Origin: Phoronis australis
Taxonomy: Eukaryota > Animalia > Phoronida
NCBI GenBank assembly: GCA_002633005.1
Contig: NMRA01000047.1
Location: 374,913-438,912 of the forward strand
DNA length: 64,000 nucleotides
Direction: 5' to 3'
A program made the translations under genes and the position numbers. Below the pieces are notes generated by a model. The model was not told where the DNA came from. It made no database searches and saw only the letters and a program-made list of their open reading frames with translations. Position 1 is the first letter of the stretch; every line of letters begins with the position of its first letter. This document shows, in pieces, positions 1-26,111 of the stretch.

Positions 1-1272
1 CACCTTTAGTATTTTTACTCATAACGTAAAATTGCCGTGAGGAGTTGACAGGGACCTCAGGGGTTTCACACTCCACTGATTTATCCACAGTATTTTGAAA
101 ACGCTTTGCCCAGTCGCACATTGTGTGTCATAAAAGAGATAAGCATACCAGCAGCTGACGCAGCAAGTAAAACTACTCTCGTTTATCACATTGGTGTAGA
201 CTCACAGTTGATCTATGGTTTTCTGTAGACCCCAGACCGTCCCGAGTTGCACCACATACCAACTCGGGACGGTCTCTCACGACGATTAAGCGTTATGTAT
301 GAGGCCCATTTATATGTGAGGTGCTTTGTAGGTTCTGTACAACCCGAGGAAACTTGGGACATTTGGCCTAACAGATGGGGAATCAACAGAGCGTTTGTGG
401 TCCTATTTACGGCGATTCTCAAGAATAACGAAAGAGATGACTGCTTCTCACAGACAGGATGTTTTAGTAGATGCATTGATGTTTTATGGGGAACGCCTAA
501 GGTCTAGTTTTGGTAAGTCAGCAGGGTCTCATTTATGCGGATTAAGCACATTTTAGCATTCTCGGCACATAGGTGAGCCTTTGTCTGACAAAGAATATAT
601 TTGTTTAGTTTGAAGTTAATATTAAAATTAAAATGAATTTTCAAACATCATCAGTTGTTTACAATATAATACAAACCTTGTATTACTTATAAACTGGTAT
701 ATGTATTGTGTGGTGACTTTTATTGAACTCTGTCCTTGTGCGTCCACATATTTATGTGATTGTGCTCATTGTCGTCATCTCTGTCTGGGTGTCTGGCGTT
801 CGTAGCTGCATCTCCTACTTCCCTCACAGGATTGTAATGAAATTTTCCGACTGATCTCTGTGGTGCTATAGAGATCCAACAAGCGCTGTGCCTAGTGGCA
901 ATTTCATTTTTTCAGGTTCCATCTGTTTCTCTGAAGTTCCTTGGCAGTTTTTTATGAAATTTAAGAAATAGCTTTCTTTTTAAGAAACAACATCTTTTGC
1001 TTTTGGTTGGATTTGGCATATTTTGTGACATTTAGTGGCTATTTTATAATGCAAATGAGCACCCCTAGATGCTAAATGTTCGCTGAGCATTCTTAGGTGC
1101 ATTTCAATGCTCTGCGTTGCTTTTGTTAATAATATGGAATGTGCCCAATACTCTTTCTTTGATTTTTCTGAAACTTGTTCAATGAAAGTTTTTATTCATA
1201 TTCTAATAAAAGATCTACTATCTAATATTCATCTGTGTGCTTTAACTTTTGTACTCATTGCTTGTTTCTCAG

Positions 1273-3057
1273 GTAAGGGCTTGTCATCTAAACTGCAAAA
1301 GGCACAAGATACTCAAGCATTGTATGATTCAGAGCTGAGACAGTTGGCAAGTCTTGTACCAGGTACACCATTGCTTATCAGTTGTGGGTTTGTAAAAACT
1401 TAATTGTTTTTTATACACTTGGAAGTTTTTACTGTGTTTTCAGGTATGTATAAAATCTAATGCTGCATGTTTTATGGGCAATTGCCATCAGTGTTTCCCT
1501 TGTACAAGTTTAATAGTAAGAACGAGCTCAGAGAAGGAGACACCTCTCCAATGCTCAATTGTCAGCCATTAAAACCAAGATTCAAACCCATGTTTCCCAA
1601 ATGGGAGCCTAGAGCTCAAACCACTGGGCCGCACTGTCTAATCATTGAGAGTTGGTATCCTCATGCTCATAAATGTGTTAACAAATTTCTTCATTGAGTA
1701 ACGATTTTTCAGGAGGTGTCACTAGTGAACAAGCTGAGCAATGGCACGAAAATGCAAGGCAGTTCCATTTGAACAGTCATGGAACACGTTTAGGTATATA
1801 TTTTTAACAGTAAACCCCTACCTGAAAGCATCGTAACTTAAAAATCGTCTGTAATTTATCTTAAATTTTACTTAAAGCAAATTTGTATTGTGTTCCACAA
1901 AACTGAGATAATATCTATTCTTATCTTAACTTTAAAACAGCTCAATCTTATCTTAAGTTTGCCTTAACTAACTTAAGAATATGTGTTCTGCTTTTGCCAT
2001 CAAAGTGAAAAAGAAAGGTTACATTATAATTTTTGTTTAAAGGATTTAAGATGGCATGATAACTTGTACCTTAATGCATGTTATCTAGTGACTCACTTGG
2101 GGAAAAATACTGTTAGTGACATGACAATCATGCACACTGTGTTCAGAAAATTGTAAGATGTGATTTTATTATAATGATTAATAGAACTGTCAAAAGTTAA
2201 ATAACTTGTATTTTCACAATTCAGGTACAGAATCAAAACACAGTCGAATGTTGGTTGACATCCAAAAACTCTGTCACGAGAGGACATACCTTCTTTCACT
2301 TAAGAAAAAGTATGCTGGTAAGTATTATTTACACCACTTGTATATTCGCTCTTGTTTATGTTGACATTGTGTATCTTTTTATAACATTTTGGACACGTGA
2401 TTCGTTGTCATGTAATTGAACAAAAGCTCAAGTGCAAAATTAAGCTTCTATGACATGGTTCTTTCAGATGGCCAAACAATAGCAATGAGGTTGACCAAAC
2501 AATTGACTAAAACGATGAAGTGCCTGCGAAAGAGAATCTGTGACTACAATAACCTGGAGCAAGATGTGTCCGGAAAGTATCCCAAAAAAATTCAAGAAGA
2601 TACCGTTTTCAACCATGGCAACACTCTATGGGCTCTGATTAGTGATGAGACCTCTGTTTTAGGGGATGGGCTGCAGCAGTTGAAGGCTGATGTAGTGAAT
2701 GCACATCTGTACAAATTGCGTGCTACAGAAGAAATAATACTACTTAAGGATGAAATGAGGCGCGTGAAATACTTTTATGTTTTGGAACATGAGAAAGCAT
2801 TTGAAGAAGCCCAGCGGTATAAGAACCAAGGTGATGAAGCACAGGCATCTATGTGGTTGAACAAATGTATGAGGTTAGAGTTGAGATTGCAAACTCTTGC
2901 ACATCAGCTTAACGACAACAGTGGCCACCCCAGTATTTTGATTGATGCCATTGAAACTGTGATTGAAAGGTCAAAACTGAATATAGTAGACTGTGAAGAT
3001 GTACTTGAGAATGATGAAGAAGAATCAAGTGACAATAGTGGGGATGAGGATTGTTGA
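1273..3057 (+). CDS. C-terminal exons of a probable KDZ (Kyakuja-Dileera-Zisupton)-type transposase; 5'-partial
   Basis: Four phase-1-joined exons with canonical ag/gt: 1273-1362 (KGLSSKLQKAQDTQALYDSELRQLASLVP), 1713-1793 (GVTSEQAEQWHENARQFHLNSHGTRL), 2225-2317 (TESKHSRMLVDIQKLCHERTYLLSLKKKYA), 2468-3057 (DGQTIAMRLTKQLTK...KLRATEEIILLKDEMRR...acidic tail, TGA). The motifs KKYADGQxIAxRL and RAxEExxLLxxEM match my recollection of the helical C-terminus of animal KDZ-family proteins; no catalytic core is in the window. AATAAA at 3925-3930. Confidence 0.65.
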
Positions 3058-5068: not shown

Positions 5069-5180
5069 GCAGTGCTGTAGTGGTAAAATTAGAGGTAAGT
5101 AGGCGCCCAACCCATCGCATCGCCTTGAGCGCTGAATTTTAATAGTACATTGAACTCGCAAAAAACTTGATTCGCAAACA
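5069..5180. mobile_element. Partial copy of the same hAT-type MITE family
   Basis: CAGTGCTGTAGTGGTAAAATTAGAGGTAAGTAGGCGCCCAACCC resembles the reverse complement of 24155-24205. Confidence 0.6.
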
Positions 5181-7867
5181 TGCACATACGTAGGCCTACT
5201 TTGTGACTCACGAGTGGCCATTTACATAGAGTCTGCATTGGCGGATCTGGTATGTCGGAGAAAGAGGGTCCCGAACCACACATTTTCGCAAAGCAGAGAT
5301 CCATGTGCATTCCAAGCGGTCTCTGAAGGGGCCCAAGCACAATTGTAACGCCCAGAAATTATTTGAAGGTGGACATTTTTAGTCGCCCGTCGGGTGTGTC
5401 CTCGGGGCCCTTCGCCACCCGTTCCCCTTTATCCACCTATGCTGGGACACCATAACTGTTTCTTTATCTTGAAACTATCTTGAAACATTGATAAAAAATT
5501 CCGTTTCTCGGTGAGCGTACATGTATGACTGGTGGTCGCGCGCCCAAATGTCTTCAGCGTAGCGCATTGATGCCGTAAGCATCGTATCGAGACCCCTACT
5601 CCTCACTATACCGTTACTTACGGTACTTAGACGTTACTTTAAAACGTAAAAAGGTGGTTGGCTGCAACTATGTGCGCTTATGCCCCACTATACCGTAACT
5701 GCGCCGATTCATAAATGGACTGCAATTGAATCCAGAGCTGTACGCATGCATGTGTAATAAAAGTGTAGAAGTTTCCCATTTCAGGCAGAGCGTGTAACGC
5801 AAGCTACAGGCTTTGGATAATGTTTCCATTCGTTTTGGACAATAAGGGAAGCTTTTAAATCATCACACTGCTTTGTAACATTTCACACGTTGTTCAAAGG
5901 TCTGCTAAAAATTATTGTCATCGCAAAAATTATGCGGCCACTTAACTCCAACTGACCAAGCATTTCACTCCCAGATGGTCACCTGACCACGGTTTTCTCA
6001 TCGACTAGGGCGGGTTTTTTCGTTTCTAACCATTCCATTAGTGTCTGGTTTATTTTTGAAGCCCGTTACCAAACGTACCAATTTTCCGATACTAACTTTT
6101 TCTAACATATTCTGATGTGAGGAAATAATCGAACACACATTTTTTTCTCTCGCTTTGTGCGATTTTCTATGCTTTTTGAACTAGAATCAGGCGACTCAGG
6201 ATTGCCGCTATTTTCTACTTCTGTAGTCTTAGTACTTTTCTCGCATGTGAGTAGACAAGATCGGTGATTGTGAAATGTCTTAACTATAAAGTATTAATTG
6301 ATTTCATTACTGATTATAGTTATTTAAACATTTAAACATTAAAATATAAGAACGAAGAAAAACATTTTCAACATTTATTTCCAAGTACATCTGAAGATCT
6401 TGAAAATCAGTGTACACCAATAATCACAAAAACAAAGACCTTCACTAAATAATCACATTTTTGCTAGAAAGTGAACCATATCCAAGTAATAACTATGGCT
6501 ACTCATGAACCATTTCAACCACCACGTTATTGTTTGTCAAAAAACGGTAGTACAAGACATAACATAGCTAATAAAACTGAGAGAAGTTGTTTGAGAAGAA
6601 TATTTATGATCAAGGTAACATTTACAATCTACACCAATATCAAATAGGCTACTACTTTGTACAAAACACATACCCTATTCGAAGATTACATGCAAACACC
6701 ATTCAGCACTTACAAATATGAATGAAGTCACATTTCATAGAAAAAAATGATCATTGTTTTAATCAGTTAAAAGGTCTATTACAGAATATAGTCTCATAGT
6801 ACAAACAATTTGTTGCATTCAGTTTTAAGCCAGGTGCATAATTGGGGCTTGGAGAAATCGCATAACATGAGCCAGAAAATCTGCACCAAATAATAATAAT
6901 GGATAAACATAAAACAGGGATTAGACACTTACCTATGACACCATGAACCAATTGTATTACATCAGGAAAAGTTCACTGATATTTTTCAAACCTACTTTTA
7001 TAGCCCTAACATTGGCAAGGTGTGTGTCAAAAGATGAAATTACCCAATTCTTCAATTTCTAAGAAGCCATGAAATATATATTGTTGGCACTTAAAATGTC
7101 ATGTCTTGTGTACCCACTCTGCAGTTGAAACTGGTACATCATCGAGATTTCTACAGTTTTAATAATTGGGAAATACAGTAGCTTATTTCAGGAAGCATAA
7201 TGGACAAAAATCGCCACCAGAAGACCTCACGATTGTCACACCCTTCCAAAAATCAATGCCTATTTGGCAAACTTCCTGGAAATCCACCGATGAACTTTGA
7301 AAACACAGAGGCAAACGTGAACATTTAAACTGCAATTAGAGGACACTGAGATACGCCAATGGGTCCAAAACTTGTCATAAAATTTTGTCACCTCTGAAGG
7401 TGCATGTTTGCCAAATTTCAGAAAGATCCTACAAAAAGTTAAGGATTGAGGAACAGAAATGCCAAATGTGGCGCCAAAGTACCGGAACCAGTTCGAATAC
7501 CAACGTCAGCCACGCGATTCTCATCAGAAAAACATGTGCCAACTTTAACAGTCCTCCAAATAGTTTTACAGAAAGGGAAACGCCAAAAAAGAAACGGTCT
7601 CAAAATTACAAAAACGTCCACTAAGGTGGCATAGAACCGTTGATTAGACGTCCGAAAATTCCGTCACCTTAACAGTAGAAACCTATCTGCCAAAATTTAA
7701 CAAAATCGATCTAAGAATTATGAAAATACAGAGGTAACTGAAAAAAATTCAAATTGCCACTATGAGGCACTGCAGTTAAGGAGATAGAACAGCAGATGGT
7801 TGGACAAACATGACAGTAATATGCACTCACATACAAGTACGTGGACTGGGGAAATAACAACAACAAC

Positions 7868-10800
7868 TTATGAAGACAAGTTTGGGAAATGAGACTCAAT
7901 AACATCTTTTAAGTTTTCATATGGCTCGAATGTCACTTCCCCAGTCTCCCACAGCACCTCTGCTTGTTTTTCGCCATCTTTAGTAATACGCATACTTAGA
8001 ACATCCTTTACAATCCAAAGTTTCTGCTTTTTTGGTTTCTTTTTTTGCTGGCGGGTTTTCTTTCGTTTCTTTTTTGAGTCTGTAACAGAATTTACAACAT
8101 CCATGAAAACACATAATTGTTGATTACTGAAGCAATAAAGTCAGAAAAAAATTAATGATCACCATTTGGTAACTGAGGTTGTCTCAATTCTAGAAAGCCA
8201 TTCAAACGAATGAGCTGTTGAGACATTCATTCAATGAAACCACATCCTGAATTCCATTTGTGGATAAACGAAAATTGGATTGTACAATTGACCGAGTTCT
8301 CAAAAGTCAGGGCCACTATCGCACACTTTTGAGCTTAGTCAGAATAATAAGCAGCTTTTAATTTTGTGTAGGCATGGCAATTTTGTGAGCAACAGTGAAA
8401 CATTGTTGACCTTTCAATGACTAGAAAAGAAGGAAAAAGATGAAGATGCACAGAATACATGGTAATTGGTCCATTTGAACAAATCACCAGAGCTAACACA
8501 CGACCAATGTTATTAATCAACAGGTTCTTTGAGAAAGAAATTTAAGATTAAGCATCACCTTTAACTTCCACCATGTGCACATCTCCTCTCTCCATCATCT
8601 TAAATATGTCCACTGTAAAAAAAAAAAAACATCACATGCTTAAGTACCAAAATTTAACAAAGCAGGTATTCCACCTATTCAATCTTTTATATAGTATATG
8701 AGTTATACTTGTTTGTCTTACTCCTCAAACTTTTTATTTAAAAATTATCAATTTTTCTTACATGTGTTAACACCAGTTTAGTGTTGCATAACTTTTCAAT
8801 TCAATAGGACTGCTGACACACAGTTGGCTCAAATCAAGTTGCCCATGACTTGATTAATGGCTTAGTGAACATAATGCACCCTGTTCACTGGCAGGAACGA
8901 CCACCCATAATTTGAGTTTTTTTCTGAAGACCACCACCCATGAATTTTTATTTCTACTGCCGTCCCCCCCCCTCCCACACGGATTTTACTGGAACAGCCC
9001 TAAGCACCACTGGCAACCCCAGATTTTATTACCAACCTGGCATTTTTAGTTTTGGCAACCTCTGAGGTTTTTGCCAAGCCACCCAATGGGACTTGGCATT
9101 AAGTTAAGTGAAATCCCAGGACACCGCATAAAGTCCAGGGTAGCTGATTCTGCATACAATTCGGCTGACAAAAAAAGACAAGGGGTAAGGTCGAACTATT
9201 GTAATGTGCCCCACAGTATATTACAAGTACCTCCCAAATTCTCCCAGTTAGTGTACATTCAGCTCAGGTAATTATTGTATGACTTTGATACTCGTATTGA
9301 CGACTTTGTGTCAACTTGGTCCCGAACACATTCTGAGGTCGCACATTCACTTGTTACCGTTGCTAGGGCAAAAAGTCAAAATAGATCTTCGTCTGGTAAA
9401 TTTGATTATTTGTTTCGCAGCCTATATCTATTTTAAAGAATAAAAAAATACATTTTTCATATCAATTTCTTTCAAACCTTAATAAAATCTTACTTAATAA
9501 GATTCTTATTAGTTTTCGACTTCAGATTAGGGTTTTCTGAGAACTGAGAAGTGAAAACTTACTCGCAGTTTCAACCTCTACAAGAGGTGTCTCACTCACA
9601 CGCTCAATTAGTGGATGTGATCGAACACCTTCTTGTGCATGTGGGACATCGTGCCAAGTCTGTTCCTCAACCACTGGATGCTCTTGTGCAACTTCTTGTG
9701 CATGTGGGACATCGTGCAAAGTCTGGTGCTCTTGAGTCTCCTCCTGTTGGAGTCTGTAAAGTTAAACCAGACAGCCTCAGAACATGGTGAATTGCTTCAA
9801 TATTCTTGAATAATTAACCTTTTTCAAACAACATTTCACAGGTTGCGTTGTATAGAAGCTCAAATATTCATTAAAAGCTCCCACCATGTGTAGTATACAA
9901 TGAAAGCCACTTACATACATTCAGCCATTTTGAAATTATAGTAAAATACTATTTCTGAAAAGGTCCATGTGCTTTAAGCTTGTGCAAGACCTTTAGAAGA
10001 ATTTTAGCCAACTTCAGAATATCATAAATGTACCTCAGTAGATGATGAACAGAATCTATGCCAGACACTATGTTATGTGCACTGTTATCCTAACCGCTGT
10101 GAAGAATTTTTTATAAAATGTTAAACTTTTGCATGACGGGCAATGAAAAGACAAGACTTGAACATTTATATCATACGAAATTTGGTCATGTAATTGACCC
10201 TGTTGTTTTGTTATGAATGTATGTTTCTTTTTTCTGGTAAATATGGTAAAAAGCATGGTCATGACAGTTTATGTCAGATTGGTATAAATTCAACAATTAA
10301 ATTCTACAGAATTTCCTCTTGCAGAGTTAACTTTTGTATACAGTATACTTTTGAAGACTGTAGGCTAAATGTAAACTTGTCAATGAGGCCCTACTTAGCC
10401 TTATAACAAACATGTTGAACAAACCCCGACCAAGTTAGATTTACTCATAGCTCTTAGTTAAACTATAAGCACATAATTGATAGTTATACCTCGTCACCCT
10501 AAGTACAAGTCCTGTCTTCTTGTGGAAATCTAGAATTTCCTTCAATCGGGTCAAGCTGTAGTAGTCTGGTTTTCTCAAAACTAAGCCTGGCATATTGGTT
10601 TCAACAACTATTTTGCCTTCCCTAACATTTTGGTAAGGTAGTCGTGAAGACTTTCCCACAGCAGTTGCTACAAAGAAAAATTTAACTGGTTTAAGCACAT
10701 ATTTTTAATGGAACAACACAGGAAATAGATTAACTCCACAACTAATATTTATTCGGCTAACCTAACACGTGTGCACCAGGGCCCAGGATTGCAGTCAAGT

Positions 10801-13800
10801 TTACATAACCATTTAAGTAAAAATATTCACCATAGTGTAAGCAAACATTTGATCTGGTGCAAATTTCCCCTAAGCTTACATGAAAATTAATTTTTTATGT
10901 TCATATAAAGCTAACTTTGTAAAATGAAGAATAGAGTGTACTTTTGAATGTCTTTTGATTGTTTAAACAAAAGTTTAATACTGCATCATTTAAAACCTTC
11001 TGAGGGTGTATATTTGTATCACAAAAATGGCCATCAGATGGCACGAAATTCATTAAACCCATTCGAAACTGGGAAAGTGTAGTCGTCTGATAATAGAGTA
11101 TGATCCCATATCCAAGTGACTTAGTGTAACTGCATGTGTATGAGTTGTTCAGAGAATTAAGCGTTATGTAATACATCCCCAAGTTAGTCATGAGGAATTG
11201 TAGTAAACATGTTTGTATGGTATATCCTGTTATTATTCATGTATGTAAGTGTATGATCACATGGATTGTAACAGATTCAGTAGTATCAGTAGAAGAGTAT
11301 GAAATAAAACTATATTATCCTCCATCAGACTAGTATTATCCTTGGACCGCGTTCTCGCACTGTGTCGTGCATTCAACCTTCCTAACCGAACATAATGCCT
11401 TTCACTGCTAGAACACCAACATCATCTCTCAAAGTTATTTGTCAAGTAGTATGTAAATTCCGTTAAAGAACTCCAAAGATGCAAAGGTAAATGGAAAAAA
11501 GCTGCCGTTAGGAGCAGACAGATACAGAAGCAAAACACAAAAAACAGTTGATGCACAAAACAGAAAGATCCTGGTGTCTTCAAAATAGAAAATTGTTTGG
11601 CCAATTTCATGAAAAACATCAAGAAACCGAAGTTAAGATGCAAAAGTAAAAAGAAAAAAGACACTATGGAGCACAACTGTAGTTAGATTTGTCTGAAATG
11701 GCATCATCAGTTGCTGTGTCCTGTTTAATTTCAGGAGGGTCTTGCTGCGGTTAAGGAGATACAGCCATGGACGCAAAAACTTGGGATGGCACTACGGAGG
11801 CCATAGAAGTTCAAGACGGAAAATAAATGTCAGTCTCAATCTTTTTATCAGGAACATTATCTCCAAATGATAACGGGAAGATAAATATGTGGGTACATAG
11901 ATGTGATGGGTGAGTTAGGAAACCAAAACAGTGGAACAGGATTTGTTATATAGAGCACAAATTGGACACTGAGGTTTATCGTTATTGATTCTCTCATTAA
12001 TTTACAGTGACGAAGCTTTTGCAATAATATATTTTAACTTACAGTACAGATCATTTAGCAGATGGCGCAACTCCACCCTCAAGTCTTTAATTTGCACCGC
12101 TGTCTGGTTACTTTGACTGCCTGTAAATTGAAACAAATATTATGACAAATTAATGTATCGTTATTTCTCTAGAAAAATTAAAGACTATTCTACTGAACAT
12201 TTCAAAATAGATTTACTTAAACATTTCTAAACCCACTTAAAGATGAAAAGAGTGGTTTAACAACTCACATTAGACGGTTCAATAGTGAGTGCACTTAAAA
12301 GTAGGACAAAGGGACTGCATTGGGACAATTTCCTAAATAATAAACACCAAACCTCAATAACAGTTAAATATCCATTTTGAGACAACAAAAAATGACATGA
12401 ACCTTATTAGCATTGTAATCCTTATCCTACGCTAGCCGAGGTCAACCCACATGCCAATTAACATATTACAAATTGCCTTGGGTTTACTCAATGGACTATC
12501 ATAAGCTGCACCTGGGCTGCGCCAGGAGAGTGCACTCACCCCAGGAGACAAGTGATTTTCATTCAGAAATTGGGAGACCTATGGAATGTTGTTAAGATAT
12601 GTGAGCATACACATTCTATAGTTCACAGTTTCTGATTTAAAACATAAGGCTGTGTTTACTAGTTTGGGAGATGTTGGCAGGTTTATGTAAATATAGACAC
12701 ATAGTTCCATTATATGGCTGAAGCCAGACAGGACCTGGATGACAGTGGATCAGTTAACTTTCACTAGGGCTATGATGGAGATTTACATATGGTGAAAATC
12801 TCCATTAAATTCTGAACAACTTTTATGTCGGCTCCTTTTCTGTGAAATTTAAACATTTCCTCTTCAAATTTCCAATTTAAAATTCTTAGGTCATTAGTCT
12901 GGGTGAACTTCATAACAACTCAGTGTACAGCAGTAGTGGTGACCTACAGTACAGCCACTGAATTATTAGACTTCATCCGGGCTACCTCACGCCTAGCCAG
13001 ACCGGAGCTTAACCGGAGACAGACCAGAGAGTGAGGCGTGAATCAACCGTGACAGCTGGCGTGAGCCTAAGCGTGACTGTACCCGGAGCTTACCTTAAGT
13101 TAGGCGTGAACGAAGCGCGAGCCCGCCTTGAGCCAGGCGTGAGTTTCACTGCCTTGTCTAGAGTTGGAACAGTGTTTAATTGTTATCCTCACTCGTTTAG
13201 CGAACAAAATACTGTATCGTATTTTGAGTGGCATTTCTCATCGCTAGAATCATCTTAACTAGTACGCTATTCAAGTTGACTAGGACATTATTTAAGATTT
13301 AATTTAGGTTTGTCCGGACACACTACCAAGAGGGTCTATTTGTCTTGAACAAGTATATTACGACTAAATATATCGGCATTGTTTCGTTCAAGTTAGTGCT
13401 TGCAATTTAATATTAATTTCGCGACTAAGGAAGTGTTTGTGTTATGAGTGTGTACGTATGCTAGCAATGGAGGCAAAATGTACAGCACTGAAAGTGACAC
13501 GAATACGTGTTTAGATAATATCTTATTATAATGAGTAGCTTTGCATTTAGATAAACACCGTAGGCCTAGTGGAGCTATGAAATATGAACAAGAAGCCCAG
13601 ATCATCTAACAAACGGCAGTAAAATGCGAGCATGCATGCATGCAGAAAAGAGTAGTGCGAAGACTATCAATTAAATAATAATACCACTACTGCTACTACT
13701 AATGATATTACAGGTTAAAGAAATACTGATTGTAACTATAATAGTAAGTATACTAGTAAGAACTACAGTATCAACTTTATTGCAGACACACAAGTACATG

Positions 13801-16800
13801 TACATTGTAGGCATACAAAAAGCAGGGAAGGCGGGACGAAAGCGTGAGGTAAGCGTTAACTAAACCGGAGGTAAGCGTGAGGTAAGCGTTAACTAAACCG
13901 GAGGTAAGCGTGAGGGCTACCCAGAGAGTAAGCGTGAGGGCTACCCGGAGAGTAAGCGTGAGATGACCGTGACTGATTTCTGTCACACCTGCGTGAGGTA
14001 GCCCGGACGAAGTTTAATAATTCAGTGGCTGTACTGTACTTAGCTCTGCACACAGGGAAAGTAGTCTGAATAGTCAGCAGGATAAGGCCGGGGTTAAAAA
14101 ATACAACTTGCATACAACAAGCTGTGATTCACTCACCTTTTGTTGCATGCAAATAGAAATCTGTCATCATGACATTGTCAAAGAAAGATGCCAGTGCTGC
14201 CTTTCCAAAGCTGTTCACCTTATCGGCAGAAGAGTCCCACACAAGACCAGCTATATTAACTCCAAATTTTGACAAGTCTTCAACCTGAAATTAAAAAAAT
14301 TTTCTCAATATTTTTCTTATTTATTTTTTGTTCATGACTGATTATAATTAATAGGATTGGTATAATGCAGACAGGACTAGATTCTCATAAAATTCAAGTT
14401 CTTGTTCATGATTAAGAATACAAGTTAGTACAAAATAAATACTCAAACTCACTGTTCGGGTAAAAATCTGCATAAGCTTGTTCTTTGAGCGTGGGGATGG
14501 AGTGACAGAGGATTTTTCTTTGTACTTAATTTTCTCATCCATGGAAAGTTTTTTCCATTCTTCCCCCCACTGTTTGAACTTTCCAGCCCCAACTTCAGCA
14601 CCTGTTGATCAAATATGAAACTGATAAAATAATGCATTATGAATAAATACACCAGCCTTCCAGTTTCATTAAGTGCCCTTCATCTTGTGTATTTGCCATT
14701 GTGTGGTGTAGCAGTGTTAGCAGAGTATTGTGTAGAGAGAGAACTTAAAGTCACCCTAACAAGTGCGAGTTGCTTAACGAATAAAAGCTGTTATGTCTTA
14801 TTTACCAACAAGATAACAAGAATATGTTCATTTTAGTAAAGAAAGGCATATATGAAATTCAAGGTGTAATTCAGAAGCAAATTGGACAAAAAGGATCTAA
14901 GTATAGCACTCACCCTTTTCATGACAGAATTGGTTGTATCCACTTTTCCCTTTCAGATAAAGCGTTTTCCGCCTTTCATATGTTTTTCCCATAATTTTTT
15001 TTCTGTAGTTGTTGACCCATGTCTGAAAAGTAGAATCAAAACTTTCAGACTTACTGACATAAATCCAAATGCAAACAAAACAACTAGATAACAAATCCAA
15101 GCGTGAAAATATAAAATCTATATTGTGGTTGAAATTTATTCAAATTCTTAAAGACATTAGAACAATCACAGCGGCTCTAACAAATTAATAATATACTCTT
15201 TGAACAGCATAACTCAACTGGGGTTACATTTAATAGCTAGTTTTCATTTTACCTCATAATCCCATTGATATACTTGACTAGGTTTGAACATGTGCCCTTT
15301 GGGCACACCTGATGATACAAAGTATGCCCTTTTTAAAAAGGGTGTGCCCAGCAGACATAATGTAATTAAGGTGGCACAATATGAATCAGAAATCCCAAGA
15401 GCAACCAAAATAACAGCCACGTTTTCACCTGACCTGCTATTCGTTGACTAGAATCTTGGCATTTTTGAAACAGCGCTGTGTTTAAAAGGAGGGGCCGTGG
15501 TGGGAAGGGGGTGTGCACTGCTGCAACGTACATGTGCTCTAATGGTGCAGTCCAGAATATCCCTGTAATCCATGTTCTGTTTCATCTTCATTTAACTACA
15601 CTGTACAAACCCAGAAAGGTGTTTTAGGCTATGCTAAAGACTTGTACCCTCACAATTAACCAGGAATGAAAAAACAAATTATAATTAACATGAGAGCAAC
15701 ACATGGCAATGATATGTTCCCACCGAGTGTGGATCGCAAATGGCAAAATCCTAAAGGTGCTAATTATCTAAACATTCTCAAACACGCAATATGCAGCAGT
15801 CAGAAAAATGACCATTAATGAATTAGACATGAATTGAGCTAGACAAATCAGAGCACAATTGCCATTAGGTGGCAGCTGCAGCACTTAAATCAGCCAAAAA
15901 AGGATGCCAGCAGTGCTCCTCTAGTAATAACTGAAACATCCGCCACGTTTCAAAATGATGCTTCATATGGATAGAGAAGCAGATGTCACCATGACACCTT
16001 GATAGACACATAGACCTACGAATTTGCATGATCCTACGAGCGGTTTGGTAGATACAGGAGGCAGATGCCAGACACAGAGATGACTGTAGTATATGCCGGG
16101 CTAATATATGCAGGTGCATGTAAATGCATGTTACTGTTTCATCATTTCAGTTAGCATTGTCAACTTTCTAGATATGTCTAATTTTGGTCTTGCTACAAGT
16201 TTTGAGCTCAACACTATACTGTACCTTGACTCGTCTCTCGGAGCAACCCAATTTCTTGGCAGTTTCCTTGACTTCTGCAGAATTCTCTTTTCTCATCCCT
16301 TGTTCCCAAGCTGACTGTAAGATGAGTACTTCACTATTTGAGAAGTTTATCTGAAATTAATCAATCAAAGTGCACAAAGGTTGTCCATTAAACAGACTGC
16401 AACCACTACTAAGACACAGAACAAAAATCTATCAATCTGAACCATGAGACTAAAATTCGAAGAAACTAACAGGAACTTTGGAAATAAAAATGAGATTTTC
16501 AGACTCAAATCCACATTTGAAAACACAAAAAACTAATGACAAGAAATGGGCTCCGAATATGTTCAAATCAAAGGGTGTCTTATGTATTTGGTCCCTGAGC
16601 TTTTGTAACATGTCATTTAATTATTGTTTACTGAAACAAAATAAGACGATAAAACCAAAACGAATAACAGGAGCCAGTTTTCACTCACTAATGGCCATTG
16701 CTGCTATACAAGTGCAAACTCTTCCCAGCAGCCACTTTGGTTTCTTGTATATATGCATTTGTAGCCAAAATTCACCTGTAACCAAGTTGGTGGTTTGGGG

Positions 16801-18803
16801 TAGCAATGGATGGTGAAAATTGATTGATGTCGAACCTAAGACCTGCCAACACTTGGATGACAGTATTAATAATAATAGACAAAACCAAATGAGGTACCAG
16901 ATGACTAAAGCTTTGGAGTTATGGAGGGACGCACCTATCAGACTATTACCAATACATTGTTCCCACGTCTGTGAAATCAAATTCTCTCATCGGGTAATTA
17001 TCAATCATTAAGCCAATGACATTCTCTTCAAAGTCTATTTTGAACATCATACACAAATAGCATGTGATCTGGGCATGCCATCTTGCTTAGTGAGCTGCAT
17101 GACGTGTGGGGCATCAAATTAATAGTGACTGGGAGAGAGGATGCCAAATTGGGAGAGTGCAAATGGTGAGCAGTGGAGCGGTAAAAGTAGAGTACACTGC
17201 CCCCCCCCCTCCCCTCTTCCGGTGAATCATATTTATAAGCATCTGTTAGCTACTCGCTAACGGGCAATTGCCTATTAGCTGAATGGTTAGCACACTCGTC
17301 GGTTTTATAGGGGTCGCTGGTTTGATTCCCAGGTAGGGTAATCTTGGCTATTGTTTACTCCAAGAATGCCACATTGACTGCCAAATCCAGCTTTCAATGA
17401 ATAATGGACATTGCCCGTTACTCGACTTTTATCTACAACGCTTAATTTTTTGTTTGAATGCGGTATTTAGGGAGGATGTTTTTTACTTTTTTTTTGCAAT
17501 ACCCATGTGTCATACATTTTTGAAAAGCCCTTGGTGTGAGCAATGAAATGGTGCAAAAATCAGGAAAAATTGGGTGAGCGGTTACCGAGAAAATGACCGT
17601 TGAAACGCAACAATTATGCATAAAATATCTGCCTTCTTACATAATTTCGTAAAAAATAAAAGAATATACATGTGCTGCAAATAAAAATTGAGACAAACAT
17701 GGTGGTGTGTATTATATATTTGTATTTGGATCGATTTCTACAGAGATATTGCTGTTTAAATGTGTTGTTTAATTAGCATATGGAACAGGCTCATCATGAA
17801 CCTCATGTTTAATGAAAACAATGGATTGCACAGCTTTAAAGGTAAAGAGCAAAAAAACAACATATCAGCTCAGAAATAAATACATCTGAGCTAGGAAGAA
17901 ATTTCACATCAAACCACAAAACAACATTGGTTGATTTTGGGAGAGGCAAGGCCCCCCCCCCCCCCCTAAAAACTCCCAGATTTCATTTGGCAGTGTGAGG
18001 GTGCAAATATCTTACAGGTGAAATCCTGCGTAATACTCTGCCCTTCCCCCCATCTAAAAATCCTAGATCTGCCCCTGAATACTACTACATGGGCAACACA
18101 TCATGGCCCGACAGGGGGCTGTGGAAGGCTATAGCACCCCCAATTTTTCAGAGCTGGGTGCCACCCATGTACTATTAGATCGTATCATAGCAAAAAAAAC
18201 ATCAGAAAGTAGACAAAAGACCATGATTTGGGAAAACAAATCACTCTTAACATGAACGATTTCATCATTTACGCAACAAAAACTCTTTGTAACAACTTTA
18301 TTTCGAACGGTGAGTTACCATGCCCGAACTTCAACGTAGCCGCTCGTGGCGTCGACGTGCGACGACTTAGTGAACTAACGACTGCTGTTTGAAAAGTGCC
18401 AATTGGCGCAGCAGTTTGACAGAATTTCAGAAAACATTTCGTAAACATGATTCATGGCTTCGCATGAATGATTCGTAGGTTCGTAGATGATTCTAAGTTC
18501 CTGCACTTCTGGAAGGATTTTCTAATGGACATGATAACATTTAACAAATCAGACAAATACGTTTTATTAAAATAATACATCATAATTCTTTTCAAAATCT
18601 CTACGGAATGTAGAAGTCAAAATGGCGCAATCAGACGACAAAAAGATGGCGAAAAGCGAACGTCTGGCGATGGATCGTCCGATTCAGTTCATCATTACAG
18701 TAGTTTAACGATGTAATTAGGCCGGTGAAAAGTAAAAAATAGTGCTAAGTGTGAAAGTTCAACTCACCCTGACTCTTTTCCTGCATCTCTCACGAGGCTC
18801 CAT
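7868..18803 (-). CDS. 426-aa multidomain chromatin protein: HDX-like homeodomain + HMG box + GTF2I-repeat-like domain + chromodomain (10 exons)
   Basis: Exons (minus): 18803-18768, 16350-16225, 15022-14914, 14601-14453, 14284-14137, 12120-12043, 10667-10490, 9753-9563, 8612-8559, 8079-7868. All introns GT-AG and phase-compatible; 1281 nt, no internal stop. Homeodomain RKRVRINFSNSEVLILQSAWEQGM...AKKLGCSERRVKTWVNNYRKK; HMG KSGYNQFCHEK...WGEEWKKLSMDEKIKYKEKS; I-repeat-like LRVELRHLLNDLYSTAVGKSSRLPY...GLVLRKPDYYSLTRLKEIL; chromo LWIVKDVLSMRITKDGEKQAEVLWETGEVTFEPYENL. Possible polyA signal at 6379-6374. Confidence 0.85.
12947..14036. mobile_element. Non-autonomous Tc1/mariner-pogo-type element (about 1.09 kb) in an intron of the homeo-HMG-chromo gene
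   Basis: Imperfect TIRs of about 45 bp: CAGTACAGCCACTGAATTATTAGACTTCATCCGGGCTACCTCACGC ... GCGTGAGGTAGCCCGGACGAAGTTTAATAATTCAGTGGCTGTACTG, with TA on both flanks; subterminal AGCGTGAG/ACCGGAG repeats. Confidence 0.85.
17258..17420 (+). mobile_element. Degenerate tRNA-like sequence bracketed by 11-bp inverted repeats
   Basis: TAACGGGCAAT (17258) ... TAGCTGAATGG (A-box-like) ... GGTTTGATTCC (B-box-like) ... ATTGCCCGTTA (17410-17420). Confidence 0.45.
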
Positions 18804-21800
18804 ATCTGTTTTCGCTGTAATAATTTCCGCGGTGGTAGAAGCAAGATTTCAAGAGCGCGCGTGGTGAAAGTGAAGCTCTCGTTGATCTCGCGAGATAGTT
18901 TTACGCAACCGTTACCCATTGTTCATTTGAACCGGCGACTCCTGATTAAAGGCCCAAGGCGTATATTTCAAAGAACTCGAACTGGAAATTTCGATACAGG
19001 AACATTTTCTTCACAAATCAATACAACATTCACAGTCTATGCCAGCACAGGTATGAATTTATATCAGGTACGGTTTTGATTTCATTTCCTATTCAACCCC
19101 ACAATCGTTGGAGCTTATAATGGGGTTTTATGCAGAAAAATACGAAAGCTTTTGTAACGTTAGGCTGAAAGATCAAGTGGTTGAAGCAGTAACTGTACCT
19201 GCTAGAGCGTTAGCAGTGCGTACTGGACACTCTTTCAGAGCGTAACTGCGCACAACTTTTTTTTGGTTTGAGCAAGTAACTGCGTAAGGAACGGGTGTCT
19301 ATTTTGGGGAAATTGCTTTTTGTTTACCGTTGATAAAAATTGCCCAATTGAGCATTTCGCTTAGTTGTACACTGTGTTAATAGTCGTATCGACATGGTTC
19401 ACAATTTTTAAATTGAGATTGTGGTTTTTTTCAAATCACATGAACATAAACATATTTTTGATCGAAATAGATGTTTTGGAAGACCCGGCAATTCATGCTG
19501 CAGTGTGAGTCCTGAAAGGCACATTATCGTTGTTTTTACGTCAGTAGAATCTACTGATTACATTTTGGTATTGTTGAGTAGGATAGACTTTTTGACCAGA
19601 GCTGTAAAACTTTGAAATCAGTGGTGTCGATATTGGTACAAATCGCCAATTCTCGCCTTTGTTTGAAGGTAATTTTCACCAGTTAAGTACATTTAATGTG
19701 CATGCGCTATTTTTCAATTGGGGTTTAGCTTTGCCAGCAGAGCGTTTACTACGAACGCGAAGGTTCAGTCCAGGTTCGAATTAGCCACACTAGTAGGTAG
19801 GTTGTGAGGGTATATTATTATTCTCGCTGGGGCTAATCTCGGAAAGAGTACTTTTTTCGCCGATATAGACATTTTTAGCAGAATCATGCAGTCTCAATGC
19901 TTATTACTAACATCGAGACGCTTATGACCATGAATCATTTCAGACAAGTACATGTCACAAGGAAATCAAACTTTATCTCGTCAGCGCAGCTGTGTTTTGG
20001 CTTGATGTCGTTTAGAGTACCCTATGACATATCATCACGCATCGTGTTGTGTGCGGAATCGTACGCGCTTTATCAGAGTGAACGTTTTCACATTACATAA
20101 GGGTCAGTGTGCTTCACACTAACCTAAGATTCGGGATTAAATTCCACTCCAACAAGCTGAACTCGGTCCATTCGAGGATTTCTCCGAAAGTTTAACAAGT
20201 AAGTCACGTTGATACTACCATTACCACTCGATCTTACTTCTACCATTATTCATGATTATCAATGCGACTGTTATTGTTATTATCATTTTATTATTATTAT
20301 TCTTGTTGTTGTTATTATTATTATTATTATTATTAGTGGTAATATATACTACTCTAACTACTTCTACTACTACTTCTAATATTACCATGAGTATGCAACT
20401 GTCAGTTACCCTGTGGTAGCACTACGTTATGTTGTTATTGACATGCCTTTTATCAGTATTAGTACACAAAAATTATTTTGCAATTCCAACTTGTTTCCAA
20501 GGCGGACGTCATCACGGAGTTTTCTAGAAATAAATTGTACTTGTGGCTTAGAAATATTCTTCTTTTTGACCTCAGTTTGGTTATAATGGTTGTCGTCATA
20601 ACAGTACTTATCACAGCCTAGTCATGTCAAAACTTGATAATAACAGGGACTTTCATTAAGAATGCGTTTGTTTCTCAAAAAAATCTGCTGAGGTTCAACA
20701 AAAACTGTTTCATGCGGTCGCGTTGCCCACTGAGCGGGAACGCTGCACCACAAGCCATCACCCAGCCGATTATGCTGGTCGCGCGATGAAGAACGCTGCT
20801 ATGCCATTCATTAGCGCAGGGTGACGTCCTCTTGTTAATTGTACATCTCATTATCTAGAGCACTAAAGTTGAATATTTAATAAGCTTGGTAAATACGCTA
20901 CGTGTATTGATCTAACGTGAACAAAGGAACTTCAGGCGTGTTTGTGAGAAGTAGCGTCTCCGTTGTCTGCTTTTGTCGCACACCATGTGTTTTTCAAGGT
21001 AACAACGTCGATTTTATATCAGTCTTTGTCACGTACCTTACCGATATCTTGAAATACTTTGACTAGCGCAAGGTTGCATGTACTGGCATCATCTACAGAC
21101 TGTGATAAATTTTGCCGCAGTCTATCAAATCCTGGCTGAATATCCACCAGACTTACAGCTAGGACACTCCATTTGAGGGTCATAGACGATTGGGATAGAC
21201 TTTTTGAAGTTAATAGCTTTGACCAGAGCTATAAACAATAAAGACGTTGCATTTTGTAATTTCATTACAAATCTCCAATGTCGTCAACGTTGTCTGCCAG
21301 ACAACTTTTAAGGCCAGTGTCTTTTCGTTACGATGAAAATACTCTGTTAGGATTTGGCTCAGGGGCATAGCGTTCGAATGCTCCTGCATAGTTAATGGAC
21401 TTTTTTCCCGTTAATGTCTCTTAAAAATACTACCGTCGGTTACACTGGCGAACCTAACAACATTCACCTTGGACCTTGTGCGTGTTGTAGGTATGTAGCA
21501 GTGGCTGCGTTTGGGGTCGAAACTATTTACTATTTAACTGTCCCTCAGTAGTACAAAATCTAACGCTAATGTTTCTTGCTAATTGCTGTCTAAATCACTA
21601 ATTTCCAACTAATTTGCTTATCCATTCAAGATATATCAAACAGTTTTCTTACGACCATAAAAATCATTTCACTCTCAAATGTATCCTTTATGGCTTCAAC
21701 AAACAACAAGAGTGTCAAAATCCACCATCACTTTCGACTACAGGCTAAGGTCTTTATAAAATTGAGCCGCTTCACTTGACTAGATTGTGCGCTCTCAATT

Positions 21801-21879
21801 CCTGACCAGTGATTAAAATCTGTTGATCAGTTGAGGATTTCACTCAACAGTTTTTGTTGATTTTCAGCTTGACAAATCA

Positions 21880-21994
21880 GGTCCTGGCAGGTCCAACAAT
21901 CTGGTCCTGGCAGGTCCAACAATCTGGTCCTGGCAGGTCCAACAATCTGGTCCTGGCAGGTCCAACAATCTGGTCCTGGCAGGTCCAACAATCT
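21880..21994. repeat. Perfect minisatellite, 5 x 23 bp
   Basis: Unit GGTCCTGGCAGGTCCAACAATCT, five identical copies. Confidence 0.95.
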
Positions 21995-22974
21995 GTTCCA
22001 CAGGGTGTATAAAACCTGGAAATATGAACAAAACACTGGCCCAAAGACTTCAAAGACCTTGCATACAGTCTACTGAAACTGATGCCAAAGTTGATTTTTC
22101 ATCTTTTACGAGTACGCAAGTGCAACCGGCTACTTAAAAAACGAACAAGGTACACCAAATCAGCAGTTTTCACCCCAAAACCACCATTTGCATGCGATTA
22201 CTACGAAGTGAGAGACAGTACCTACATTCAAAATGCCAAAAGTTTCCAGATTACAAAAACCAGGTGAAAAGTGGGTGCTGAACAGACAATTTTTTACCGA
22301 TCTAAAGTGTCTAAAGAGAACCTGAATTTCTTACTAAATTTCGTCTTCGCGCTTGCAAGCAGTCATGCAAAGTTTTTAGAAACCCACGACTGAGCAAAAA
22401 GGGAACAAGGGACCAACAACTGTGAACCTTTCACTCAGAACACACTCAAAAATCAACATAAGCAAATGTCATTCGTAGACTTCACATCATCATGCAGCAC
22501 AAAACTTAAAATACCCTGCCAACCCAGCAGCCGCCAATTTTTAATGAATCTGGTAAATTCAACCGTGGCTCAGAAACTATTGAATGTCACCTCTAAGTGC
22601 TGACAAAAGAGGGATAAGATCGCCATATTATTGCATAGCCTCGCATCTCATAATGTGATATCTCCGTAAGTGAAAAAACCAGTGACAGTCTTTCAAATTT
22701 CATGCTGTGTTAGCACCATGACTGACCCTAAGGAAACTGAATGTAACAACAATACGCCTTGCTTTCTGTATCACCTATGGCCTAGAACAAGGTAAGCTTG
22801 TGTCATGATCTTCACATTAATATACGTACATGTACGTGCAGTATCTGGGCAGGGAATGCTGCACAGATTTCAGTTACTCTAGAATAGCGCTAGAAAAGCA
22901 AGGCGAGGTTATCAGAGATATTGGCTTGTATTTTAATGAGAACACTTTGTTTTGGCTAAATTTTTCTAGCGGCG

Positions 22975-23892: not shown

Positions 23893-24056
23893 GTTTCACT
23901 TTTTCCAACTAAAGCACTGGCTTACAACGCAAGCGTTTTCGCTGGCGTTGAAGCACGGACGAACTGTCGGTGAAAGGGTAATTTTCGCCAGCAGTTGATT
24001 TGTTTCCTCACCAACCGAGTCGCCTTTTAGCGAAATTAATATCAAAACACGCGCAC

Positions 24057-24205
24057 CAGTGCTGTAGTGGGACGTAGGTGCACGTAGGCGCAGCCAACCA
24101 CCTTTTGGCATTTGAACGTAGCGCCTACTTACGTTCAGTACTCAATGTGATACAGTGGGGTTTGGGCGCCTACATTCCTCTAATTTTATCACTACTACAG
24201 CACCG
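24057..24205. mobile_element. hAT-type MITE
   Basis: Ends CAGTGCTGTAGTGG ... CTACTACAGCACCG; flanks ACGCGCAC / ACGTGCAC form an 8-bp TSD with one mismatch. A related end lies near 5069-5140. Confidence 0.75.
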
Positions 24206-25173
24206 ACGTGCACTCTTGCCATAAATTAATTGATGCAACGCACCATACAGCAAGGCTATAAGAAAGCGTACTCCCTTGGCAATGCGCTCATCCATTTATA
24301 AGACCACAAAACGTTTCGTGATCGCATACAGTCGACATCCCGTCTGAGATCGTTCGTCGTTGTCTTAGCTTCTCCGTCGCTAACCTTGAAAACCGTTTGA
24401 CTAGTCATGGATGTAATTATGATTACCTTAAGCATTTTTTATGCAAAGGAAGGCCGCCATATTGCACAAAATTCTGTTTTTGCTCAGAACATCGTTACCA
24501 AGGACCATAGATAGATTGTTTTGATCTGTTACCCACGTTTTTAAGATGTGTGAATTCAGGGAAGCTAGTTTACAGGTGGATAAGTCCTGAATTTACATAA
24601 GTTATGCAAGTTAAGGCCGCCATTATTTACAAATCTATGCTTATAGCTAGTTGCAAGATTAATTTGAATAATTTATGCAAATAATGGCCACTATTATCCA
24701 AAATTCTGTATCTATTCGTAATTGCCTTAAGGTGCACTTCGTGTAGATTATCTTGATATTTGCACCCATATTTTCGTTGTCAATGAGTTTAATGAAATCA
24801 GTTGGCAGGTAATTATATCATGAATTTGCATAACTTATAATGCAAATGCAAATACGGCTTGACATTATTCATTTCGAATGCACCCCTCTAACAGATACAA
24901 ATTGTGTAGGTGAATCAAACGATTACAATTAATTAAAAGGTTTCCACGATCCATGTAATTCATTCTAGTTTTCCACAAAGCAGCTAATTATTTACTATCA
25001 TATTATCAAGGGGTGAAAACACTGTTTGTGTAAGCACCTTAAAGTTCCAGTTACGCCCACCCTAAACTCCAGTCCCAGATCAGCTTCCACCAAATTCGGA
25101 TTCGCGTCTCTAGAGGTGCTATTGTGGAGTTGTTTCCACCCCCTGGTTGTGTACGTAGCAAAATCATTACGGC

Positions 25174-25326
25174 AGTTCGTTCATTTGCAGTCAGCCAATT
25201 GATACAGACAAGTTCGTTCATTTGCAGTCAGCCAATTGATACAGACAAGTTCGTTCATTTGCAGTCAGCCAATTGATACAGACAAGTTCGTTCATTTGCA
25301 GTCAGCCAATTGATACAGACAAGTTC
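25174..25326. repeat. Perfect minisatellite, 4 x 37 bp
   Basis: Unit AGTTCGTTCATTTGCAGTCAGCCAATTGATACAGACA, four identical copies, no spacers. Confidence 0.95.
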
Positions 25327-26038: not shown

Positions 26039-26111
26039 ATACCTGTATTGTATTATGGGTAATACCTGTATTGTATTATGGGTAATACCTGTATTGTATT
26101 GTGGGTAATAC
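26039..26111. repeat. Minisatellite, about 3 x 23 bp
   Basis: Unit ATACCTGTATTGTATTATGGGTA. Confidence 0.9.

Follow-up and report, generated by a model that had tools for sequence, protein, structure and literature searches.

A ten-exon gene with homeodomain, HMG-box, TFII-I-type repeat and chromodomain-like modules, probably the partner gene of a Kyakuja-like KDZ transposon

The window analysed here, a DNA stretch of 64 kb, contains ten minus-strand exons (Table 1) that, when spliced from the window sequence, give 1281 nt encoding 426 aa with a single terminal stop. The nine introns are all GT–AG. Both points had been anticipated in an earlier note, which proposed that ten exons join without frameshift or stop and that the splice sites are intact. 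Exon 2 ends at a phase-0 intron within helix 3 of the homeodomain, and the lysine-rich stretch of exon 10 is likely a nuclear signal. An ORF at 16684–16986, considered as an extra exon, was rejected owing to a stop in the exon 1 frame and the lack of a Pfam match. Tail to tail with this gene, 4.8 kb past its stop codon, lies a KDZ transposase gene of which the window includes the 3′ part. Its match to PF18758 at 332–553 reaches 38.5 bits (cut-off 26.6, E 1.3e-9); no upstream transposase exon was identified within the window. A word-indexed protein search with the last transposase exon found nothing, which is weak evidence either way. The transposase stop is separated by 3.3 kb with small repeats from the likely polyadenylation signal of the ten-exon gene. 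The earlier note had read the gene as encoding a free-standing protein. Its exon model and module calls largely stand, but it overlooked the converging transposase, the partner genes in other KDZ elements and a fifth module, the linker domain between the HMG box and the I-repeat.

Table 1. Coordinates of genes, exons and other features in the 64-kb window
Feature	Position	Strand	Description
KDZ transposase gene, 3′ part	332-3057	+	Exons 332-512, 1273-1362, 1713-1793, 2225-2317, 2468-3057; 344 open codons
3′ untranslated region	7867-6374	-	To likely polyadenylation signal AATAAA (6374-6379); repeat interrupts; end inferred
Exon 10, coding part	8079-7868	-	aa 357-426; lysine-rich stretch, chromodomain-like module, stop codon
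Exon 9	8612-8559	-	aa 339-357; optional, 54 nt; skipped in X1 contig
Exon 8	9753-9563	-	aa 275-339; acidic spacer with internal 63-nt duplication (family D8)
Exon 7	10667-10490	-	aa 216-275; rest of GTF2I-like I-repeat
Exon 6	12120-12043	-	aa 190-216; first helix of I-repeat; phase-1 intron common to L014
Alternative exon, intron 5	12403-12452	-	Spliced to exon 6 in X1 contig; upper end is the contig's end
1090-bp insertion	12947-14036	.	Inverted ends bordered by TA on either side; sits within another repeat of intron 5
Exon 5	14284-14137	-	aa 141-190; linker domain, placed as the conserved linker of the partners
Exon 4	14601-14453	-	aa 91-140; remainder of short HMG box, first helix of linker domain; Pfam HMG_box E 0.0036
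Exon 3	15022-14914	-	aa 55-91; last part of recognition helix (W56, N59, R61), first helix of HMG box
Exon 2	16350-16225	-	aa 13-54; helices 1-2 of homeodomain, beginning of helix 3; Pfam PF00046 E 0.036
Exon 1, coding part	18803-18768	-	aa 1-12; start codon, basic N-terminal arm of homeodomain; e1-e2 joint
KDZ terminal motif core, candidate right end	18928-18935	-	Only strict copy in the 64-kb window; 132 nt above the ATG

The modules proposed in the earlier note are unequally supported. In a Pfam scan done exon by exon, all four matches fall below the curated cut-off (Homeodomain E 0.036, HMG_box 0.0036, GTF2I 2.7e-4, Chromo 0.0044). The I-repeat nevertheless is well supported: against a profile of 31 vertebrate repeats (PF02946, GTF2I-like), exons 6 and 7 joined score 25.1 bits over profile positions 1–77 of 84, with 9.0 bits as the best of 2000 shuffles. 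Exon 7 alone reaches 21.7 bits (Pfam GTF2I cut-off 27), and its five PDB matches are all TFII-I-family repeats. In an I-repeat search of 1.84 billion proteins, four of the eight matches are vertebrate TFII-I or GTF2IRD1 and the other four unrelated repeat proteins; protein searches revealed no homologue outside TFII-I. A word-indexed protein search with exon 7 found nothing, again weak evidence either way; the Atlas gave no usable match for this exon, and folding it alone gave no confident model (pLDDT 51). Support is weaker for the homeodomain, HMG box and chromodomain, and comes from key residues, from relatives and from an Atlas match. The homeodomain carries R12, F15, L23, W56, N59 and R61, which we take to correspond to R5, F8, L16, W48, N51 and R53 of the canonical pattern, with a one-residue insertion and the helix-3 intron. 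For the HMG box, the Pfam match covers the C-terminal half only, exon 4 matches the PMS1 HMG box (E 0.32) and HMGB1 (E 9) in PDB, and the F86–W106 span is about eight residues shorter than in HMGB1 box B. The exon 5 linker has no Pfam match and was not detected by a linker profile built from other KDZ loci alone; it aligns with the linker of locus L014 at z 3.8 and with TFII-I N-termini at z 1.4–1.8. The latter values are not significant, and no profile match to the TFII-I N-terminal leucine-zipper/dimerisation region was found in the window protein, so that the apparent resemblance to this region is suggestive only. Trimming of exon 10 improves its Chromo match to E 0.0022, still below the cut-off, and the Atlas match to a chromodomain (0.92) comprises 193 shared features; a single-sequence model (pLDDT 83, pTM 0.48) showed no chromo match and nothing clear (best Z 3.4). 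Its methyl-lysine cage, as we assign the positions, is incomplete, with two of three aromatics (W378 and W400, with G403 at the third position). PDB sequence searches were uninformative for exon 2, exon 10 and alignment A5. As in the earlier note, no characterised protein with this combination of modules was found.

The gene is transcribed in four libraries (X1–X4), chosen by species label. Among the junctions listed, RNA supports five of the nine introns: e1–e2 (36 reads in X4, plus 45 loose ends), e5–e6 (8, 10 and 3 reads in three runs, the last being X4), e6–e7 (in the X1 contig and in 2 X4 reads), e7–e8 (X1 contig) and e9–e10 (3, 2 and 34 reads). The joints e2–e3, e3–e4, e4–e5 and e8–e9 are absent among the junctions listed, where depth over exons 3–5 is mostly 0–2 (below 2 in exon 3 and without reads in the 3′ part of exon 4), too low to show absence. 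In X4, depth is 38 in exon 2 and 51 in the 3′ untranslated region (7000–7416, single strand only). Among the junctions listed the commonest splice is e2–e9 (40 reads in X4), which skips exons 3–8 and leads to a stop after 59 aa. The sole contig with the I-repeat, from X1, matches exon 8 with zero differences and skips exon 9; its e8–e10 joint is in frame and would give 408 aa if full length. This contig begins at the alternative exon in intron 5, whose translation contains in-frame stops, so that its product would be devoid of homeodomain and HMG box. A full ten-exon transcript was not seen in X1–X4 among the junctions listed, at the depth of 0–2 over exons 3–5. Because five of nine junctions are listed and alternative forms are seen, we only infer a single transcript with all four modules. 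Several sequence types are expressed, and in every run two or more kinds of read cover exon 6; these types would be alleles or copies. Eight of the 11 listed read differences are synonymous (22–28% expected; P 0.0005–0.003). The excess of synonymous differences partly bears out the earlier suggestion of selection or recent activity.

Other KDZ loci contain related genes. Of the 58 loci fetched, 26 extend 5 kb or more on the downstream side; these 26 belong to a single assembly and served as seeds for the profiles. A partner exon occurs in 20 of these long loci, always on the opposite strand, and 17 of the 26 have a homeodomain, HMG, linker or I-repeat exon, likewise always on the opposite strand. 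The six loci devoid of partners are L001, a shortened copy, and L007, L008, L017, L023 and L031, which are unexplained. Support from other assemblies is limited to three short loci (L005, L019 and L027). The relatives are multi-copy with differing flanks. The element in L030, 10.9 kb long, is complete: it has inverted ends, is flanked by a 7-bp repeat (6/7 match) and encloses its partner, whose ATG lies 197 nt inside the element end. Three upstream matches in this locus appear to be from another copy. In L024 and L045, the element ends beyond the partner exons. A tblastn search of 59 loci with the entire spliced protein found no significant match, and profiles were needed. A profile of six locus partners only matches aa 14–155 of the window protein with 21.1 bits (best of 2000 shuffles 12.1). 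The window I-repeat aligns with that of L014 at z 7.2 (0 of 2000 shuffles), and the homeodomain with the start of the HMG box aligns with L030 at z 4.3 (3 of 2000). BLASTP gave no alignment of exon 2 with the L030 exon, Pfam no Homeodomain match for the corresponding exons of L030 and L040, and a word-indexed protein search with the linker alignment two partial proteins only, weak evidence either way. Four intron positions and phases match those of locus partners, with locus splice sites read from sequence alone. The exon 2/3 intron site is the same in L030 and L040, exon 3 has equivalents in L002, L030 and L040, and the three 5′ introns without listed junctions coincide in position with introns of L030 or L040. 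The I-repeat family (L012, L014 and L015) provides three of the five best-scoring transposases. Partner tails vary, with a chromodomain here and, elsewhere, a predicted beta-rich domain or, in L036, a Ulp1 SUMO protease (E 9e-5, above cut-off) and a PHD finger. Collectively, the window gene lies on the opposite strand and downstream of a transposase, as the partners do, and has a homologous core and shared introns.

No suitably oriented terminal motif was found between the transposase and the partner gene, and the strict core motif occurs in the window only upstream of the ATG (Table 1), in line with one element containing both genes. Against this, the outer three bases of the candidate right end are unlike those of the relatives, and a looser search with two mismatches was at chance level. 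Inverted similarity between 5077–5690 and 24065–24195 was rejected as element ends, each being a small element with its own ends. The introns and 3′ region of the gene contain several insertions, among them the 1090-bp insertion of intron 5, presumably Tc1/mariner-like, for which empty-site reads occur in X2–X4.

By sequence homology and analogy, the gene is probably the second gene of a single Kyakuja-like KDZ element, a large cut-and-paste transposon of 19 kb or more, and its product is likely the DNA-binding helper of this element. It is likely a KDZ partner with a conserved homeodomain–HMG–linker core and a swappable tail. Direct support comes from the open frame, transcription, the converging transposase, and the homology and intron sites common to partners inside KDZ elements. 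By analogy, the homeodomain would recognise short sequence motifs close to the ends of the element and the HMG box would bend the DNA, and the linker with the I-repeat would dimerise the protein and either pair the ends or recruit the transposase. The C-terminal module may couple the element to chromatin state, and truncated splice forms could limit the amount of full protein. Precedents for two-gene transposons are the Myb/SANT partner of Harbinger and TnpA of EnSpm, and HMGB1 acts in RAG and Sleeping Beauty reactions. As in both transposons, a separate DNA-binding gene accompanies the transposase, but here the transposase and DNA-binding folds are unrelated to theirs and several modules are chained in one protein. 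Harbinger consists of a transposase and a Myb/SANT protein (PMC12730594).

As described in the available text on the Kyakuja lineage, extra genes are carried inside an element with a KDZ transposase; the CA..TG ends and CxC2 cluster of the relatives and the 7-bp flank repeat of L030 also recall this lineage (PMC12730594). The differences are an animal-type, intron-rich host DNA, inverted ends in the relatives instead of the ends without inversion of fungal Kyakuja, and a homeodomain–HMG–I-repeat protein instead of TET/JBP cargo (PMC12730594). Neither ‘HMG’ nor ‘homeo’ occurs in the main text of that paper (PMC12730594). Giant KDZ elements of Cryptococcus and Ectocarpus likewise exceed 10 kb and carry extra transcribed genes and nested insertions, but their extra genes are reported, in the parts of these sources available, to have no predicted domains or no known function, unlike the modular partner here (10.1101/2024.08.15.608186, 10.1101/2025.05.19.654958, PMC12477816). 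A literature search with most subscription journals, Repbase entries and supplementary files outside its coverage found nothing on a KDZ partner gene or a transposon origin of TFII-I.

Other explanations bear on the role of the gene. Possibly, though we think it unlikely, the partner acts mainly in counter-silencing or self-activation, as VANC proteins do in plant VANDAL elements, rather than in assembly of the transposition complex. The conserved core, DNA-binding and DNA-bending but not enzymatic, and the incomplete chromodomain cage argue against this role; the variable tails, being chromatin modules, fit it, as do the TET enzymes of fungal KDZ elements, which have been proposed to counter silencing (PMC12730594). 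A rather improbable variant is that this copy of a KDZ partner yields mostly separate or truncated products, namely the 59-aa homeodomain fragment and a short product with I-repeat and chromo modules that starts within an intron, with the four modules rarely or never in one protein; the truncated forms could then restrain the element, or stem from a copy with an internal deletion. The preponderance of e2–e9 over e5–e6 in X4 (40 reads versus 3), the contig beginning in intron 5 and the four joints absent among those listed point in this direction. They are countered by the presence of e5–e6 in three runs, by the open frame and canonical sites of exons 3–5, by the 5′ introns placed as in L030 or L040, and by the low depth itself.

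Adoption by the host of the partner gene of an immobilised element as a transcription factor, as may have happened to TFII-I, appears improbable. An intact frame transcribed in four libraries, the degenerate candidate right end and the several insertions are as expected from adoption, but the visible part of the transposase is open too, several sequence types are expressed and most of the transcripts seen in X4 are truncated. Moreover, insertions nested in giant KDZ elements that continue transposing are already known, and usual, according to the available text (PMC12477816). Finally, it is very improbable that an ordinary host gene lies by chance beside an unrelated transposase remnant. The 3.3-kb interval with small repeats would allow it; the recurrence, across independent KDZ families, of gene order, orientation, core domains and intron positions largely refutes it, and the protein searches, with nothing outside TFII-I, speak against it as well.

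The KDZ partner gene can be compared with the vertebrate TFII-I family (GTF2I, GTF2IRD1 and GTF2IRD2). Both have the I-repeat (PF02946), present once in the window protein versus six times in the family, as far as the source describes it (PMC8155576). The window protein differs by its added homeodomain, HMG box and chromodomain, and by the probable location of its gene in a transposon. Among 26,305 ORFs, the linkers of L002 (E 0.03) and L004 (E 0.005) match the N-terminal region of TFII-I, and in a contig-derived bird product the match begins at the I-repeat intron site of the window gene, which is indirect evidence. The best PDB match of a three-sequence homeodomain profile, 2da4, is weak (E 0.18), with a common aromatic-x-x-G-M turn; the protein is presumably HDX, which to our knowledge has no HMG box or I-repeat. 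HDX is a highly divergent homeobox protein (PMC2211742). A TFII-I repeat in a KDZ helper gene would point to a transposon origin of the TFII-I family. We tentatively consider, at somewhat less than even chances, that the animal KDZ helper gene is old and modular, with homeodomain, HMG box, dimerisation domain, I-repeat and swappable chromatin tail, and that the vertebrate TFII-I family was tamed from the dimerisation-plus-I-repeat part, the repeat then being multiplied; HDX, an orphan homeobox gene, may share this source.

In the papers covered here, the extra genes of giant KDZ elements are given as having no known function; in this locus, parts of one are named, and the gene is intact and transcribed. 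The same core with different chromatin tails provides a testable two-component model of KDZ transposition. Genes of this kind will be mistaken in annotation for lineage-specific homeobox or HMG transcription factors. A TFII-I repeat, apparently with the same intron site, thus seems to lie inside a transposon of a probably non-vertebrate host, and phylogeny can therefore test where the Williams-syndrome transcription factors came from.

The ten-exon minus-strand gene of the window is a transcribed member of a family of partner genes, which lie on the opposite strand beside transposases of the KDZ family (PF18758), and it stands beside its transposase. The KDZ domain of this neighbour scores 38.5 bits against a cut-off of 26.6; the transposase has 344 open codons over five exons, ends at 3057 and is convergent with the partner. 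Joining exons e1–e10 upholds the uninterrupted frame put forward in an earlier note (1281 nt, 426 aa, nine GT–AG introns, zero internal stops), and no second copy of the gene was found within the 64-kb window. The window resembles animal DNA in its ~38% G+C, its numerous small repeats and its C2H2 zinc-finger gene, which is probably the host gene lying nearest.

Coordinates of features in the window and in KDZ loci (L numbers) from other assemblies
Sequence	Position	Strand	Feature
Window	332-553	plus	KDZ transposase domain
Window	5070-5705, 24052-24208		One small element family, inverted ends, two opposite-facing copies
Window	7868-18803	minus	Partner gene
Window	8707-9004	both (reads)	Intron 8 repeat, very high coverage, depth 150-460
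Window	14583-14671		Reads jump back 89 bases across exon-4 acceptor (16 in run X2, 25 in X3)
Window	18935		Strict core of end motif, inward-facing
Window	21852-22022, 25137-25321, 26039-26111		Tandem arrays, units of 23, 37 and 23 bases
Window	27682-28080, 29241-29684	plus	ORFs of 133 and 148 aa, no clear Pfam family; may be parts of another mobile element
Window	32770-40883	minus	C2H2 gene, multi-exon, TFIIIA-like, weak TFIIIA_zf match
L003, L030	6584-6862, 5253-5807		B-box-like zinc finger, N-terminus of KDZ transposases
L030	5062-15946		Complete element
L036	14871-15968	minus	Tandem-repeat spacer, then Ulp1 SUMO protease and PHD finger at partner end

Identity as a KDZ partner gene is highly likely. 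A profile of six partners, all from other loci, matches aa 14-155 at 21.1 bits and tops 2000 shuffles (next 12.1). In pairwise comparisons, the GTF2I repeat (I-repeat, PF02946) reaches z 7.2 against L014, and the homeodomain-HMG start z 4.3 against L030. Four introns, with sites read from sequence, agree in position and phase: L030 and L040 share those in homeodomain helix 3 and after the first HMG helix, L040 also the one in the linker, and L014 the one that follows the first helix of the I-repeat.

A KDZ exon query retrieved 58 loci from metagenome assemblies, leaving out one weak viral-contig locus; since they contain introns, they are eukaryotic. Among the 26 with at least 5 kb 3′ of the KDZ match, all from one assembly and about six families, a partner exon is present in 20 and a core exon in 17, on the opposite strand every time; strand and side were not imposed on the search, and the count is not independent because these loci supplied the seeds of the profiles. 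The L040 partner was recovered although L040 was not a seed, and partners also occur in three short loci from other assemblies (L005, L019 and L027). Architectures are homeodomain-HMG-linker (L030, L040), homeodomain end-HMG-linker-beta-rich domain (L002, L004), HMG-linker-I-repeat-beta-rich domain (L014, L015; Pfam GTF2I E 0.009) and HMG-linker-Ulp1-PHD (L036); Ulp1 exons related to those of L036 occur in ten other loci. No chromodomain was found in locus partners, and thus this tail is known only from the window gene.

The four domains proposed for the window protein are unequal: the I-repeat is firmest, while the homeodomain, HMG box and chromodomain are weaker and all below Pfam cut-off. 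Single exons stay below cut-off (Homeodomain E 0.036, HMG_box 0.0036, GTF2I 2.7e-4, Chromo 0.0044), as expected because introns split the domains. A profile of 31 vertebrate I-repeats matches aa 200-272 at 25 bits (best of 2000 shuffles, 9.0), and all five PDB matches of exon 7 are TFII-I-family repeats; in a 1.84-billion library, four of eight I-repeat matches are TFII-I or GTF2IRD1, the remaining four being unrelated repeat proteins. The homeodomain retains R12, F15, L23, W56, N59 and R61, which correspond to R5, F8, L16, W48, N51 and R53 in canonical numbering. The HMG box has a short stretch separating helices 1 and 2, and a small exon may have been overlooked between e3 and e4, as their junction is absent among those listed. 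For exon 10, Atlas support for a chromodomain is 0.92; its predicted fold yielded no such support and two of three cage aromatics are present, at positions presumed to form the cage, so that methyl-lysine binding is doubtful. A fifth module (aa 126-189), the linker between HMG box and I-repeat, gave no Pfam match.

Four RNA runs (X1–X4), chosen by species label, were placed on the window twice, covering about one-fifth of each raw run. Reads over the exons have nearly all the same orientation, which fits a minus-strand transcript. The nine proposed introns are borne out in part: the junctions listed include e1-e2 (36 reads in X4), e5-e6 (8, 10 and 3 reads in three runs), e6-e7 (X1 contig and 2 reads), e7-e8 (X1 contig) and e9-e10 (3, 2 and 34 reads), i.e. 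five of nine, and lack e2-e3, e3-e4, e4-e5 and e8-e9, depth over exons 3-5 being mostly 0-2. Two forms count against a simple ten-exon model: the commonest in X4 splices e2 to e9 (40 reads; stop after 59 aa), and the X1 contig starts at an exon within intron 5 and omits e9. Either exon skipping or an internally deleted copy would fit these RNA data. Reads are of at least two sequence types, and 8 of the 11 differences listed are synonymous, versus 22-28% expected (P 0.0005-0.003). The back-jumping reads point to transcription of a copy that is tandemly duplicated at the exon-4 acceptor.

Element ends of the KDZ relatives have in common a short motif starting CA. The window holds a single copy of its strict core, 132 nt before the ATG of the partner gene, and none with the same facing was found between gene and transposase; because the outer three bases of this copy are unlike the relatives' ends and a looser search of the window did no better than chance, it is a candidate element end only. 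The L030 element (10.9 kb, two genes, ~100-bp inverted ends) encloses its partner, whose ATG lies 197 nt from the end, and is flanked by a 7-bp repeat with 6/7 bases matching. The relatives' transposases carry CxC2, which, with CA..TG ends and the 7-bp repeat, makes their elements resemble the Kyakuja lineage as outlined in excerpts of its description (PMC12730594).

Available text on TFII-I describes six I-repeats and a leucine zipper (PMC8155576). Among 26,305 ORFs, a TFII-I N-terminal profile ranks highest the linkers of L004 (E 0.005) and L002 (E 0.03); the window linker is not significant against this N-terminus (z 1.4-1.8). In a bird TFII-I cluster, the match of a 71-aa contig-derived product begins at the window gene's I-repeat intron position, an indirect sign that TFII-I may have this intron too. 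Transfer may have run from host to transposon or the reverse. The best PDB match of the homeodomain profile is 2da4 (E 0.18), presumably HDX, and kinship would be a lead only. HDX is classed as an orphan family in the part of the source consulted (PMC2211742).

That the gene is both a KDZ partner and a DNA-binding helper is probable. The homeodomain would recognise element end motifs and the HMG box bend DNA, the linker and I-repeat may mediate dimerisation and either bridge the ends or bring in transposase, and the C-terminal tail would read or alter chromatin. EnSpm TnpA is a possible analogy, as is HMGB1 in the reactions of RAG or Sleeping Beauty; like Harbinger, they serve as leads. Harbinger has a Myb/SANT partner protein, according to excerpts (PMC12730594). 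The main alternative to the helper role is that the partner counters silencing, and both roles may coexist.

KDZ elements with extra genes are already known; in the portions consulted, the extra genes in Cryptococcus and Ectocarpus are described as without predicted domains or of unknown function (10.1101/2024.08.15.608186, 10.1101/2025.05.19.654958, PMC12477816), and elements carry nested insertions along (PMC12477816). No description of a homeodomain-HMG-linker partner was found in the literature searched, a scope that did not extend to Iyer 2014 and Repbase. What the window locus adds is a partner that is intact and expressed and carries a homeodomain as well as a chromodomain, together with homology of KDZ partners across families at the level of introns; L030 would offer a ready experimental model, if its frames prove intact.
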